Assembly (NCBI GenBank): GCA_934102055.1
Contig: CAKOSE010000001.1
Location: 53,740-117,739 of the forward strand
Origin: an uncultured Bacilli bacterium
GTDB taxonomy: Bacteria > Bacillota_I > Bacilli_A > RF39 > UBA660
DNA: 64,000 nt
Direction of reading: 5' to 3'
The translations under genes were made by a program, and so were the position numbers. Positions within the stretch are counted from its first letter, which is position 1. Each line of letters opens with the position of its first letter. The notes under the pieces are model-generated. The model saw nothing but the letters and a program-made list of their open reading frames with translations. It ran no database searches and had not been told where the DNA came from. This document shows positions 43,917 through 64,000 of this stretch, one piece after another.

Positions 43917-43950
43917 TTGGAAGAAAAAAAGCATTAGTTTTGCTTTTTAG
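43917..43950 (-). terminator. Terminator at the end of the glycopolymer cluster
   Basis: Minus-strand hairpin AAAGCA(aaactaa)TGCTTT, then a T7 run. The stop codon sits in the loop. Confidence 0.45.
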
Positions 43951-46699
43951 AATTAATAAACATATGTATAGAAAGAATAATTCCTCTATTTTTTATGTTT
44001 AGTAGGTTTCTTTTTAATCTCCATATAATGCTTTTTTGATCTTTAGAGTTATCTATATTACAAATTGGTTCATATTTTAAGCTTTTATCTAAAATATCTA
44101 TATATTTTTTGTATAAAATTCCAACTTCGTAATAATTTTTTCTAAGCTTTTCATCATTAGTTACTAGGTTAATTATTGTATCTAATTCTTCCAACTTTTG
44201 ATTGTCTGTATTTTGATTTTTATTATTTTTTTCTGTATTTGTTAAGGTGTTGTTGATTGCTAGAAAACTATATTTTTTTGATAAATTAATATATAATAAT
44301 ATATCATTTTGGTAACATTCTTCTTCTGTAAATGCTTCTTTTTTAATCATTACTGTTGATAAGTTTATATAACAATTTTTTATTAGTTCTTTAGAGCATT
44401 TTCCATTAAAAATACTAGTATTTATTTCTTTTGGAGTGTTTTCTTCGACGATGTTATAATTTGTATGAGAAAAGGTTTTATCGTCTCTTAGCATTTCTGT
44501 TAATTGGATTAATAACTTGTCTTTATGAAATGTGCTGTTTGAATCTAAAAATGATATATAATCTCCGGTTATATCTTTTATGCATTTAAGAGTTAGTTCT
44601 TGTTTATTTTTGGGTTCTTTAAATTGAAAATATTTTATTTTTTTATTATTTTTAATGTATTCTAAAAGTTTAGTATTGTCCTCGATATAATTATTATCTA
44701 TTACGATTAGTTCCCAATTAGTAAAACTTTGTTGTTCTACTGATTTTATTGATTGTATTGTTTTTTCTATATCATCATCGCAAAAAAGAATTATAGATAT
44801 TTTAAATTTTTCAAGTTCATTTTTAACGTGTTTTTCTATATATTTGATGGCTCCTTCATAGTTTGTTTTTCTAAGAGAAGTTTGAAAACTAATATCAAAT
44901 TTTAAACTTGTTCCTCTATATTTTTCTTTTATTTCTATAGGAATGTCTTCATATATTTTTATCCATAATTTATTACATTCTGGTATGGTGTTTTTATTTT
45001 TTTGTGTATCTTGATTTTCATGAACTCTATATTTGGCTAGAGGTTTATCTACATGATAAAATTTATATTTATATAAAATTTTATTCCAATATTCATAGTC
45101 TTGAGTTGTTTTATATTTTGTTTCAAATAAACCGTTTTCATCAAAGACTTTTTTTGGTATTAAAAGGGTTATACCATTTATGTTTCCGTTTATTACGGAG
45201 TATTTATCTTGTTTTATTAAGTCTCTGTGCCAGCGGATGGAACTTCTATAAATTATGCCATCTTTGTCCATTACATCGTTATCTGAATATAAAATTATAT
45301 TTTTGTCTTTTTCTTTTGCTAGATATTTTATTTGGTCTTCAATTTTTGTTTTATAATACATATCATCATGAGAGAGCCAAGAGAAGTATTCCCCTTTCAT
45401 GCTTTTTATTGCAGTATTAAGTGCTGATGCAACTCCCCCATTTTTCTTTTTTATGTATTTTATCTTGTCTTTGTATGATTTTATTATTTCATGTGTTTTA
45501 TCAGTACTTCCATCGTTAACTACTATTATTTCTATATTTTTATATGTTTGGTTAAGTGCACTATCTATTGCTTCTTTAACATAGTTTTCCCCATTATAGA
45601 CAGGGATTATTATGCTGACTAAGGGATTAAATACTTCATTTTCTTTTTTTGGATGATAGTTTTCTATAAAGTATTTAGTGCTTACGATTAGATTATCATA
45701 ATTTTTATAATTAAAGTTTGAATTATCGAAAAAGTATGAATGATATAAAGAGTGTTTATATACTTCGAGTAGATCTTTACTTATTTTTTCTAGACCATTT
45801 CTAAAATGATTTGTAAATTCTATTTTTTCTTCTTCTGTTTTTAATTTTTTAACTGAAGCGAAGAAAAATGTCAAGCAGTTGTTATAGAAAAATATTCTTG
45901 AAAATTCTTCATTTTTCTTATAAAAATACTTCATTGTTTCTATTACAGAATCCAGAGTTCCTAAGTATGAATCAAGGGTCTTACAAGATGATAATTGTGT
46001 TTGAGGATGCATTCTGTAGTATTTAAATAAATTAGGGATATATATTATTTTTTGAGATTCTTCGATGATTGGCAAAATAGCCATTAAATCATTTGCGTGT
46101 TTTCCTTTGTAAGGATGTTTTTGTAATAGTTCTTTTTTTATTATTTTGTTTGAACTCGAAGCACAAGCCCAGTGTCCCATTAAAACTTGTTTTTTTAGTT
46201 CGTGAATAGAATCTGTGTTTTTTTCTATGCTCATGGTGCTAGTATAGATATTATCTTCATAAATGGAAGCTTTTTTTATTTTTTTCTCATTATGATAAAT
46301 TGCAATATCTGATACTACAATATCTGCATTTGTTTTTAAAGCTTGATATAACATTTTTTTATAGAAGTTTTTATCTACAAAATCATCAGAGCTTTGTACT
46401 CCAATATAGGTTCCCCTAGCCTTACTAATTCCTTTTTCTAGAGTTTTAGGGCATCCTAAATTTTTTTTATTTTTGAAAATTCTTATTAGTTTTTTATATT
46501 TTTTATTTTGATTTTTCCATTTTCTTACTTTAGATAGGGATTTGTCAGTAGAACCGTCATCTATTACTATTATTTCTACGTTCCCTTTTATTCCTTTTGT
46601 AATACTATTTAAACACTCTTCTATATATTCCTCATGATTATACATTGGAATTACTATGCTTAGATCTTTCATATTTCTCTCCTTGTTTATTTTTTCCAT
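43934..46699 (-). CDS. Glycosyltransferase with three GT2 domains (921 aa)
   Basis: Three separate GT2 signatures: SIVIPMYN...VIDDGSTD; SIIIPVYN...VVNDGSTD; ISIILFCDD...IVIDN. Confidence 0.7.
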   Translation of the reverse strand: MEKINKERNMKDLSIVIPMYNHEEYIEECLNSITKGIKGNVEIIVIDDGSTDKSLSKVRKWKNQNKKYKKLIRIFKNKKNLGCPKTLEKGISKARGTYIGVQSSDDFVDKNFYKKMLYQALKTNADIVVSDIAIYHNEKKIKKASIYEDNIYTSTMSIEKNTDSIHELKKQVLMGHWACASSSNKIIKKELLQKHPYKGKHANDLMAILPIIEESQKIIYIPNLFKYYRMHPQTQLSSCKTLDSYLGTLDSVIETMKYFYKKNEEFSRIFFYNNCLTFFFASVKKLKTEEEKIEFTNHFRNGLEKISKDLLEVYKHSLYHSYFFDNSNFNYKNYDNLIVSTKYFIENYHPKKENEVFNPLVSIIIPVYNGENYVKEAIDSALNQTYKNIEIIVVNDGSTDKTHEIIKSYKDKIKYIKKKNGGVASALNTAIKSMKGEYFSWLSHDDMYYKTKIEDQIKYLAKEKDKNIILYSDNDVMDKDGIIYRSSIRWHRDLIKQDKYSVINGNINGITLLIPKKVFDENGLFETKYKTTQDYEYWNKILYKYKFYHVDKPLAKYRVHENQDTQKNKNTIPECNKLWIKIYEDIPIEIKEKYRGTSLKFDISFQTSLRKTNYEGAIKYIEKHVKNELEKFKISIILFCDDDIEKTIQSIKSVEQQSFTNWELIVIDNNYIEDNTKLLEYIKNNKKIKYFQFKEPKNKQELTLKCIKDITGDYISFLDSNSTFHKDKLLIQLTEMLRDDKTFSHTNYNIVEENTPKEINTSIFNGKCSKELIKNCYINLSTVMIKKEAFTEEECYQNDILLYINLSKKYSFLAINNTLTNTEKNNKNQNTDNQKLEELDTIINLVTNDEKLRKNYYEVGILYKKYIDILDKSLKYEPICNIDNSKDQKSIIWRLKRNLLNIKNRGIILSIHMFINSKKQN

Positions 46700-63231: not shown

Positions 63232-64000
63232 CTTTTCTCTCTTCGATCAATAAATTTAAATAATTTATGTGGCATATGTTTATCATATCCATATATTTTC
63301 TTTTTTTGTTCTATTTTATATAATAAATACTTTATGGAATGTGGCTTCAACTTATCTATTTTCATATAATCAGGATACCTATTTATTTCTGGAAATTTAA
63401 TTCCATTATCTGTAATAGATACGTCAAAACCAAAGTATTCAATTTGTTCAAAGAAACTGGAAATTTCTTTTATGTCATTTAAAATTTTTTTCCAATCAGG
63501 TATAGATCCTTCGATAGGGACATGCGTATCTGGGTGTTCCTTGCAGGATGTTATTTTTAAATCATCTGTTATTATTAATGCATCATGGAAAATACCTGTT
63601 TCTTCATCGATAGTAACATTAATTCCACCAGCTCCAATATTATCAACGGTACCAGTTTTACTTGAACCGAATCTCATGTAAATATTTCCAATTTCAGGAG
63701 TTTTGCCATCTGCTTTAAAAACTATTACTCTCATTGTGTTAACGGAGCCGGCATATATTTTATTTATAAAATCACTCTGTTTAATATACTCAGTCACTAA
63801 ATACTCATTATTTTTATCCGATAATATATTGATAATATCTTGTTCAGTGGCTTCATTTAAATTTAAGTATAGTTTATTGTTTTTATAGCTTACTCTATAA
63901 AAACCTTCTCCGTGAGAACCATTATCTCTTTTTAATGCTATATCTCCTTCTTTTTTTATTAAATTAAATATATCTCTATAAGTGTTTTTATACCCACTTG
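63228..64000 (-). CDS. TupA-like ATP-grasp protein (3 of 3), N-terminus beyond the window
   Basis: Motifs MRVIVFK...VDNIGAGGINVTIDEETG...FDVSI. The frame stays open upstream of the annotated GTG to position 64000. Confidence 0.55.
   Translation of the reverse strand, partial: SGYKNTYRDIFNLIKKEGDIALKRDNGSHGEGFYRVSYKNNKLYLNLNEATEQDIINILSDKNNEYLVTEYIKQSDFINKIYAGSVNTMRVIVFKADGKTPEIGNIYMRFGSSKTGTVDNIGAGGINVTIDEETGIFHDALIITDDLKITSCKEHPDTHVPIEGSIPDWKKILNDIKEISSFFEQIEYFGFDVSITDNGIKFPEINRYPDYMKIDKLKPHSIKYLLYKIEQKKKIYGYDKHMPHKLFKFIDRREKR

Follow-up and report, generated by a model that had tools for sequence, protein, structure and literature searches.

A predicted wall-glycopolymer locus that joins a TagF-family enzyme, a nucleotidyltransferase and ATP-grasp ligases in an uncultured gut Firmicute

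Described systems and the present locus

In Gram-positive bacteria, wall teichoic acids and related polymers govern surface charge, the adsorption of phages, recognition by the immune system and tolerance of antibiotics. To our knowledge, the only well-known addition of amino acids to wall teichoic acids is the extracellular D-alanylation by the Dlt system. Here a gene cluster is described that carries teichoic-acid-type genes together with three genes for ATP-grasp ligases. It lies at the end of a 64,000-nucleotide stretch of DNA (the window; contig CAKOSE010000001.1 of assembly GCA_934102055.1) from an uncultured, low-GC, spore-forming gut Firmicute that is labelled 'Bacilli' in the records of metagenome-assembled genomes (MAGs). 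An earlier annotation made without database searches (the sequence-only reading) took the cluster for a surface or wall glycopolymer locus, an interpretation that the predicted gene families support.

Staphylococcus aureus and Bacillus subtilis W23 make ribitol-phosphate wall teichoic acid by the Tar pathway (TarI, TarJ, TarL/TarK, TarB/TarF, TarG/TarH). The window cluster resembles it in having TarI beside a medium-chain dehydrogenase/reductase (MDR), two TagF-family enzymes and a putative TagG/TagH-like exporter, and it too would assemble its polymer in the cytoplasm before export. Unlike the Tar pathway, the window cluster has no TagO, TagA, TagD or LytR-CpsA-Psr (LCP) gene, and it adds an unrelated nucleotidyltransferase, three ATP-grasp genes (four domains), phospholipase C (PLC)-like proteins and a fusion of a family 2 glycosyltransferase (GT2) to TagF. 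The core module found here also occurs without TarIJ.

In the HS:2 capsule system of Campylobacter jejuni, the enzyme Cj1438 carries a GT2 domain and a TupA-like ATP-grasp in one protein and amidates the C6-carboxylate of glucuronate (PMC11800379). There, as with the adjoining genes AG374 and GT2_496 of the window, an ATP-grasp is coupled to a GT2 in an ABC-transporter-dependent polysaccharide route. The pair resembles a split Cj1438, the closest characterised case of an ATP-grasp at work on a polysaccharide. However, Cj1438 belongs to PF14305 and the window ligases to PF14397, the window genes are separate, the locus has no uronic-acid pathway, and its core ATP-grasps go with a TagF enzyme and a nucleotidyltransferase rather than with a GT2. 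The teichuronopeptide of Bacillus halodurans C-125, a TupA system, is a wall polymer of poly-γ-L-glutamate and polyglucuronate (PMC8153356). It too combines a glycan with amino acids, and relatives of the present locus carry CapB-like Mur-ligase and CapA-like PGA_cap genes beside their ATP-grasps. In contrast, the window proteins are not of the TupA family, the backbone would be a TagF-type phosphodiester instead of polyglucuronate, and poly-γ-glutamate genes are absent from the window.

The TagF-family protein TagF383 of the window aligns with the capsule polymerase Cps3D of Actinobacillus pleuropneumoniae, and TagF-glycosyltransferase fusions in such systems, comparable to the 904-aa GT2-TagF protein here, build glycosyl-polyol-phosphate repeats. 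Those systems differ in that they serve Gram-negative group 2 capsules, draw on CDP-glycerol or CDP-ribitol and lack partners of the ATP-grasp type. The tail of F420 is assembled by a nucleotidyltransferase (CofC/FbiD), a phosphotransferase (CofD) and glutamate ligases (CofE/CofF), which is an analogy to the locus and not a homology: these enzymes make a cofactor rather than a polymer, there is no sequence-level orthology, and FbiD/CofC are not the nearest structural neighbours. Literature searches for ATP-grasps with TagF, wall teichoic acid, ribitol or glycerophosphotransferase, or for PF14397, returned nothing relevant, with subscription papers mostly outside their coverage; within that coverage, the composition is not a described system, as the sequence-only reading had supposed. 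In short, TagF/ABC-exporter loci for wall glycopolymers are known, and the widespread module of TagF, the nucleotidyltransferase NTP203 and ATPgrasp_ST proteins appears to be undescribed, as does the PLC-like accessory family.

The conserved core

We lean towards the reading that the locus directs a wall-teichoic-acid-type polymer along an ABC-transporter route and is a five-part mosaic, built around a conserved core at a hypervariable site between xseB and spoIVB. The core would consist of TagF383, NTP203, the ATP-grasps AG355 and AG793, and TagG/TagH. The other parts would be the pair of AG374 and GT2_496, two lineage-specific cytoplasmic proteins resembling PLC and P1 nuclease, a CDP-ribitol module (TarI and a TarJ-like protein) with the GT2-TagF fusion, and a separately transcribed trio for a 6-deoxy-L-HexNAc with a triple GT2, in which the first enzyme is inactivated.

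The full cluster spans about 21.7 kb on one strand from xseB, just beyond the window end, to spoIVB, and in metagenome contigs with identical proteins it is preceded by nusB-xseA-xseB. Between 43934 and the window end at 64000, every open reading frame (ORF) of at least 170 aa lies on the minus strand, and neighbours overlap or stand no more than 180 nt apart, so that the one-strand cluster with small gaps seen by the sequence-only reading holds. The whole window has a G+C content of about 26%. The core genes are as follows.

63228-64000, minus strand: C-terminal part of AG793, a two-domain ATPgrasp_ST protein of 793 aa; the gene runs about 1.6 kb past the window
62164-63231, minus strand: AG355, an ATPgrasp_ST ligase (PF14397, 141.8 bits) of the core type that co-occurs with the nucleotidyltransferase
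56291-57442, minus strand: TagF383, a TagF-family phosphotransferase (PF04464, 178.6 bits)
55671-56282, minus strand: NTP203, a 203-aa nucleotidyltransferase of a conserved, unnamed 200-aa family, with a weak match to NTP_transf_3
54893-55738, minus strand: TagG-like ABC-2 permease (PF01061, ABC2_membrane), with a likely start at 55678 (261 aa)
54129-54893, minus strand: TagH-like ABC ATPase (PF00005, ABC_tran)

The core was delimited by comparison with about 170 related loci overall, numbered with the prefix L. A first set of 78 loci came from a scan of a genome collection with an ATP-grasp profile, and all window proteins were searched against it by tblastn. Most ATPgrasp_ST genes in that set are not linked to other window genes, and a subset of MAGs labelled Bacilli or Clostridia carries contiguous homologues of TagF383, NTP203, AG355, the C-terminal half of AG793 and TagGH. 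A set free of this selection bias was obtained by fetching 80 metagenome loci with NTP203 alone, and counts were made on the 43 that have at least 4 kb on both sides. An AG355-type ATP-grasp (39-86% identity) is present in all 43 and lies within 200 nt of the nucleotidyltransferase gene in 36; a TagF383-type gene is found in 42 and TagH in 40. These loci range from 25 to 54% G+C and fall into 23 clusters at 80% nucleotidyltransferase identity, every one of which has an ATP-grasp. The prevailing order is TagF, AG355-type, nucleotidyltransferase, AG793-type, TagG, TagH; in seven or more lineages the next gene after TagH encodes an LCP protein. The most compact arrangement is the following.

L113, seven-gene operon flanked by maf and thrS: TagF, ATP-grasp, nucleotidyltransferase, ATP-grasp of two domains, TagG, TagH, LCP (LytR_cpsA_psr)

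No glycosyltransferase, TagD or TarIJ is found in the L113 operon. The ATP-grasps are supported as integral to the system, because the conserved block of relatives includes them and because they accompany TagF and the nucleotidyltransferase in 43 of 43 loci; they go with the TagF383/NTP203 core rather than with the ribitol or L-sugar modules. The sequence-only reading had staked its view of the ligases on their lying within the conserved cluster boundaries in relatives, and that is where they lie.

The ATP-grasp ligases were called TupA-like by the same reading. All three genes are ATP-grasps, and their family is a different one, ATPgrasp_ST (PF14397), which Pfam labels 'sugar-transfer associated ATP-grasp'. 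The gathering score of this family is 31.4 bits, and the three proteins reach 170.5, 141.8 and 118.3 bits; the ORFs as they stand in the window score 90-170 bits. At E<=0.01 they match PF14397, PF14398 and PF02655 only, and none matches TupA (PF14305) at that threshold; the matches to ATPgrasp_YheCD (PF14398) are weak, at or just above the family cutoff and far below the PF14397 scores. A search of the PDB with an ATP-grasp profile gave nothing significant, the best match being TTLL7 (E 0.055). Residues K118, K157, E194/E195, D314, E327 and N329 of AG374 are invariant among 20 homologues, as is the E-G-N motif, and the catalytic residues of the ATP-grasps are intact.

The third of these genes is real but is represented in the window only by the tail of AG793, to which the ORF at 63228-63797 belongs. 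The gene starts 11 nt after xseB and is present in full in L001-L005. Residues 484-766 correspond to Pfam ATPgrasp_ST. The N-terminal half is a divergent ATPgrasp_ST-like domain that has lost the E-G-N motif, which we take to be the metal-binding motif of ATP-grasps; the relation was resolved by hhalign with a seven-sequence profile (probability 96.9%, E 1.7e-10), a single sequence having given a probability of 5.6%.

NTP203, which had been noted as an odd nucleotidyltransferase, has about 1000 homologues, many at 63-82% identity, with the conserved motifs M(A/C)DGKGTRW and LYGDT. Its weak family matches are complemented by a confident predicted structure (pLDDT 87) with a nucleotidyltransferase fold of the GlmU-N/LicC/IspD type and an N-terminal G-x-G-x-R-type loop. 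Its profile reaches only E ~2e-3 in the PDB, to GlmU, LicC and IPCT; the protein is no closer to TarI/IspD than to LicC, PntC, IPCT or GlmU, and it is unrelated to TagD. Judged by the structural model, NTP203 is a genuine nucleotidyltransferase. Phosphocholine was considered as a substrate and set aside, since the 'choline kinase' label on two JGI homologue records is an unverified automatic label and not evidence. The genetic context suggests that NTP203 makes the donor for the core TagF enzyme, because tail modules carry an activating enzyme of their own (TarI, or TagD in L088) and minimal operons have NTP203 only.

Two TagF-family phosphotransferases, one of them fused to a GT2, had been proposed, and PF04464 is matched at 178.6 and 139.1 bits. 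TagF383 probably starts at 57406 (371 aa), as called in metagenome contigs. It matches TarL (8va1, E 4e-19), Cps3D (8qoy, E 1e-15) and also TagF in the PDB, and its IWH and RGHP motifs align with the histidine motifs of Cps3D (NTWHG, FRGHH) and with KMHP of TarL; these histidines are presumably the catalytic ones, from what is generally known of TagF. Its best NCBIfam match is the glycerol-phosphate primase TarB, at 121 bits, far under the cutoff.

A hypervariable site

The site between xseB and spoIVB is a hotspot, because relatives with the same flanks carry different contents, and the window holds the largest mosaic seen among the compared loci.

L090: four ATP-grasp genes, TagF, nucleotidyltransferase, TagGH and nothing more; no TarIJ
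L091 and L101: GT2, TagF, nucleotidyltransferase, TagGH, TarIJ, GT2-TagF; no ATP-grasp
L092: Mur-ligase-LRR_5, ATP-grasp, PGA_cap, ATP-grasp, core, ATP-grasp, Acyl_transf_3
L088: ATP-grasp, ATP-grasp, Mur-ligase, ATP-grasp, GT2, core, Acyl_transf_3, split TagD, epimerase, giant TagF-GT1-GT2 protein

L085 and L087 are further variants that keep the core and differ in their accessories. The ribitol module and the ATP-grasp set therefore vary independently, as L090 and L091/L101 illustrate in opposite directions. Mur-ligase (CapB/MurE-like)-LRR_5 fusions are interleaved with ATP-grasps, often next to PGA_cap (CapA-like) genes, at L085:168-2213, L088:7983-9986 and L092:1368-3374. The TagD gene of L088 (CTP_transf_like, 17521-17912) is split into ORFs of 58 and 73 aa, a possible pseudogene in the variable tail comparable to the fnlA-like gene described below. 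Two loci that are 95% and 67% identical to that of the window and have spoIVB/xseB flanks stand under the labels 'Bacteroidaceae' (L007, CAVFIB010000003.1) and 'Lachnospiraceae' (L009, CAVGVM010000140.1), which probably reflects wrong labels or contamination of these MAG bins. By synteny with Bacillus, we would presume an ispA-dxs-recN block between xseB and spoIVB and Spo0A downstream of spoIVB. The ispA-dxs-recN block is absent from that interval, which the glycopolymer locus fills instead.

Accessory modules

Next to the core ATP-grasps lies a third ligase gene with an adjoining glycosyltransferase gene.

61012-62136, minus strand: AG374, an ATPgrasp_ST ligase (PF14397, 170.5 bits), paired with the downstream GT2
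59510-61000, minus strand: GT2_496, a GT2 glycosyltransferase of 496 aa (PF00535, 115.6 bits, residues 8-147)

AG374-like and GT2_496-like genes occur together in L010, L011, L013 and L029. The C-terminal half of GT2_496 (about 250 aa) matched no family. This glycosyltransferase gene and the paralogous pair at 57453-59329 come in addition to the genes that the sequence-only reading had listed. The pair is as follows.

58412-59329, minus strand: PLC-like near-orphan of 305 aa, with a putative fold like that of zinc phospholipase C and P1 nuclease
57453-58400, minus strand: PLC-like paralogue of 315 aa, 43% identical to its 305-aa neighbour

Neither protein has a recognisable signal peptide or a family match above threshold in Pfam or NCBIfam. 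They share words with only eight proteins among 5.8e9 sequences, and a profile search of 1.84e9 representatives found two full-length clusters only, together with fragments and weak relatives of 200-270 aa; of eight such weak relatives, two match Zn_dep_PLPC weakly. The invariant residues are H7, D37, H67, H134-x3-D138 and H186, a pattern that we take, from general knowledge, to fit the zinc ligands of the PLC/P1 nuclease superfamily; the N-terminal Met-Ala is invariant as well. The pair may thus represent accessory cytoplasmic metallo-phosphodiesterases. Among 180 loci, the family is confined to the xseB-spoIVB loci of this lineage and always lies just upstream of the TagF gene. L007 has neither gene, owing to a 1750-bp deletion (window positions 57469-59218) that left a 5' remnant. 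The gene of P0132, a distant relative of the pair with 255 aa (profile E 8e-22), comes immediately after an ATPgrasp_ST gene on a short contig that is otherwise unrelated (L179:77-2108), and this hints that the PLC-like and ATPgrasp_ST families are functionally linked beyond this lineage.

The ribitol module lies downstream of the exporter.

53397-54110, minus strand: TarI, D-ribitol-5-phosphate cytidylyltransferase (NF001183, 357 bits against a cutoff of 166; PF01128)
52385-53404, minus strand: TarJ-like zinc-dependent MDR dehydrogenase (ADH_N and ADH_zinc_N), overlapping tarI by 8 nt
49683-52397, minus strand: GT2-TagF fusion, an ORF of 904 aa (called as 893 aa) with PF00535 at residues 20-180 and PF04464 at 526-896

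The earlier identification of tarI-tarJ agrees with these results, in that TarI scores above its cutoff and an MDR dehydrogenase adjoins it. No specific NCBIfam model matched the TarJ-like protein, whose assignment comes from position and family.

The last four genes of the cluster form an L-sugar tail.

48615-49606, minus strand: fnlA/capE-like pseudogene of a UDP-GlcNAc 4,6-dehydratase/5-epimerase (Polysacc_synt_2), frameshifted at 49466
47795-48613, minus strand: RmlD-like 4-reductase of 272 aa (PF04321, RmlD_sub_bind, 100.6 bits)
46687-47793, minus strand: non-hydrolysing UDP-HexNAc 2-epimerase, WecB/FnlC-like (TIGR00236, 245 bits against a cutoff of 210; PF02350, 304.8 bits)
43934-46699, minus strand: triple-GT2 protein, an ORF of 921 aa (called as 912 aa) with three PF00535 stretches (257 bits)

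The three GT2 domains of the 921-aa protein had been recognised in the sequence-only reading. Apparent breaks in this gene in L095 are runs of N in the scaffold and not mutations. The three families of the WecB/RmlD-like/FnlA-like trio, proposed in the same place, are all matched, but the intact FnlA that the proposed route needs is not there. One A has been lost from an AAAA run at 49466, leaving ORFs of 53 and 260 aa; in L007, the relative at 95% identity, the gene is intact at this position. When repaired, the protein scores 506 bits on the FnlA model TIGR04130, whose cutoff is 730, and the RmlD-like reductase scores 88 bits on the rmlD equivalog against a cutoff of 224. Six independent contigs of the window species were compared over this region. 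One shares the 49466 allele, and four (L093, L095-L097) have that site intact and instead carry a 2-nt deletion at 49122; the sixth is short, begins downstream of both frameshift sites and is uninformative. An assembly error was rejected as the cause: an independent assembly has the 49466 allele too, and four others have a different frameshift, so that two independent mutations have inactivated the gene. Since the first enzyme is frameshifted in every informative contig of the species, the L-sugar route is genetically broken. We infer that the L-sugar and triple-GT2 tail is a decaying or dispensable decoration module.

Transcription signals

The tail is also set apart by its signals. The consensus terminator scan demands at least three G-C pairs and so missed both relevant hairpins, which were folded directly instead.

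49655-49685, minus strand: hairpin with U-run that begins at the GT2-TagF stop codon, a probable internal intrinsic terminator
43926-43948, minus strand: weak A/U-rich hairpin with U-run over the stop codon of the triple-GT2 gene (-6.7 kcal/mol, z -2.5)
42867-43847: spoIVB (Peptidase_S55), 86 nt downstream of the 43926-43948 hairpin
59330-59509, minus strand: widest intergenic gap (180 nt), with a candidate extended -10 element (TGaTATAAT) upstream of the PLC-like genes

The 49655-49685 hairpin has 13 bp and a fold of -14.3 kcal/mol (z -3.77) that none of 200 shuffles equalled, and its stem is retained in L007, where a G.U pair has become A-U. It is followed by a candidate promoter, TTGCTA-16-TGaTATACT, read by eye, and a strong ribosome-binding site. 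With this strong hairpin, a candidate promoter and a ribosome-binding site ahead of them, the last four genes probably form a transcription unit of their own. The claim of the sequence-only reading that the only strong terminator lies at 43917-43950 is wrong, since its hairpin is the weak one and the stronger lies between the GT2-TagF gene and the L-sugar genes. Direct folding found no significant fold in the 59330-59509 gap, and the promoter there is a candidate from reading the sequence. A promoter scan of this AT-rich DNA carried no information, with 124 matches where shuffled sequence would give 136, and Rfam and tRNA scans of the whole window gave no matches.

Interpretation and alternatives

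From these gene families we infer a route whose substrates, step order, ligated amino acids and wall attachment are proposed as follows. NTP203 would activate a small phosphorylated alcohol or acid as its nucleoside diphosphate derivative, and TagF383 would transfer the activated unit in the cytoplasm, as a phosphodiester, to a lipid-linked chain. The GT2-TagF fusion would add glycosyl and ribitol-phosphate units, the latter from CDP-ribitol. By way of an acyl-phosphate, the ATP-grasps would join amino acids or a short peptide either to the precursor that NTP203 uses or to the nascent polymer. TagGH would then export the product, and an LCP enzyme encoded elsewhere would join it to peptidoglycan.

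The sequence-only reading had gone further and proposed an amino-acylated polymer of ribitol-phosphate and 6-deoxy-L-HexNAc. That product is not borne out: the fnlA-like gene is broken, the trio is probably a separate transcription unit, and ribitol module and ATP-grasps vary independently. The locus is better described as a mosaic of modules than as one integrated four-route pathway.

Several observations weigh against the proposed wall-teichoic-acid-type route. L091 and L101 retain the TagF, nucleotidyltransferase and TagGH core without any ATP-grasp, so the ligases are not strictly needed for the core to persist. Neither a TagO/TagA-type priming enzyme nor an LCP ligase was found among the window cluster proteins with Pfam, and for this reason the acceptor and the attachment to the wall are assumed. 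The locus has no pathway for a carboxylate-bearing sugar (e.g. a UDP-glucose dehydrogenase) and so no obvious site for amidation. The tagGH exporter of the sequence-only reading is present as a permease and an ATPase of the expected families, and teichoic-acid models match best, below their cutoffs: the ATPase scores 215 and 202 bits on the teichoic-acid export models (cutoffs 538 and 320) and 175 on the Wzt/RfbE galactan model. Because both TagG and TagH score under the NCBIfam teichoic-acid cutoffs, the exporter may be a generic Wzm/Wzt system. The transcript boundaries, finally, are predicted ones.

It is possible, if rather unlikely, that the locus makes an ordinary ribitol-phosphate wall teichoic acid, in which NTP203 replaces TagD and supplies CDP-glycerol to TagF383 as a TarB/TarF-like primase. 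The ATP-grasps would then be decorative, for instance placing an ester-linked amino acid in lieu of Dlt-type D-alanylation. The TarB model as the best match of TagF383, albeit far under its cutoff, and the score of TarI above the ribitol-5-phosphate cutoff both fit such a polymer. Because minimal operons hold no other source of an activated polyol, glycerol-3-phosphate would also be the simplest substrate, and TagD, split in L088, may be dispensable there. The relationships of NTP203 argue otherwise, as it is unrelated to TagD and stands no nearer to TarI/IspD than to the other nucleotidyltransferases compared. Across 23 lineages NTP203 is encoded almost without exception beside an ATP-grasp, an adjacency that would be unexpected of a plain CDP-glycerol supplier, and literature searching found no known wall teichoic acid pathway with ATP-grasp ligases.

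The same adjacency bears on whether two unrelated systems are merely neighbours here, a teichoic acid locus and a peptide or poly-amino-acid capsule system to which the ATP-grasps, and the Mur-ligase/CapB-like and PGA_cap/CapA-like genes of relatives, would belong; the ATP-grasps would then make a free or separately anchored peptide polymer. Such a division would account for the interleaving of Mur_ligase-LRR_5 and PGA_cap genes with ATP-grasps in relatives, for L091 and L101, which dispense with the ATP-grasps and retain the rest of the locus, and for the position of the ATP-grasp genes at the xseB-proximal end of the cluster. It is improbable, given that most lineages place the AG355-type gene between TagF and the nucleotidyltransferase and the AG793-type gene between the nucleotidyltransferase and TagG, that a peptide polymer would have neither an exporter nor an anchor of its own in the minimal operons, and that homologues of CapB and CapA are absent from the window. 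It is very improbable that the locus makes a polysaccharide of the spore surface (crust or exosporium) rather than a vegetative wall polymer: the cluster adjoins spoIVB with spoIIM close by, its ATP-grasps match ATPgrasp_YheCD weakly, and B. subtilis SpsB (TagF family) and the YheC/YheD ATP-grasps are spore-coat proteins with these domains (PMC7725329), but the TagGH-type exporter, and in other lineages an adjacent LCP gene, point to membrane export and peptidoglycan attachment, the L113 operon between maf and thrS has no sporulation genes, and the PF14398 scores are far below those of PF14397.

Within the wall-teichoic-acid-type reading that we prefer, a bolder proposal, which we regard as doubtful, is that the triad of TagF, NTP203 and ATPgrasp_ST with TagGH, and often LCP, defines an undescribed class of wall polymer in which the phosphodiester repeat unit bears amino acids instead of being a plain polyol; the class would be widespread among the uncultured Firmicutes of gut and rumen. 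The repeat of such a 'teichoic-peptide' may be a phospho-hydroxy-acid or a phospho-amino-alcohol, joined by an ATP-grasp to an amino acid either ahead of nucleotide activation or following it.

Other features of the window

The rest of the window has the following features.

40491-42546, minus strand: OmpR-type response regulator and histidine kinase, directly downstream of spoIVB in the place that Bacillus synteny would give to Spo0A
33935-34816: XerD-like recombinase gene
30610-32520, minus strand: LtaS-like sulfatase-family protein of 636 aa
21700-29140, plus strand: Tad/Flp-type pilus locus (Flp, TadE, ParA-like ATPase, T2SSE, two T2SSF), followed by a SpaA/TED-domain pilin and a sortase
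18996-21068, plus strand: ORF of 690 aa without a Pfam match at E<=1e-5
12806-13474, plus strand: ORF of 222 aa without a Pfam match at the same threshold
2347-3693, plus strand: BspA-type LRR_5 repeat protein

Given the LtaS-like protein, lipoteichoic acid is probably another product of the organism, made independently of the cluster. Strongly positive GC skew over positions 1 to about 30 kb gives way to zero or negative values past about 38 kb, with a peak of the cumulative skew at about 36-42 kb, and gene orientation switches from plus to minus where the skew turns. The window may span the replication terminus.

Significance

Strain-level turnover at the locus, by module swaps, a 1.75-kb deletion and two fnlA frameshifts, is the pattern expected under diversifying selection on a surface structure. 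The carriers of the module are abundant uncultured gut and rumen Firmicutes, whose surface chemistry has hardly been described. An L113-type operon of seven genes is small enough for heterologous expression, and the proposal is therefore directly testable. If it is true, a widespread cytoplasmic ATP-grasp module that works with a dedicated nucleotidyltransferase and a TagF polymerase would give bacteria another, chemically distinct route to amino-acid-bearing wall polymers beside the Dlt system.

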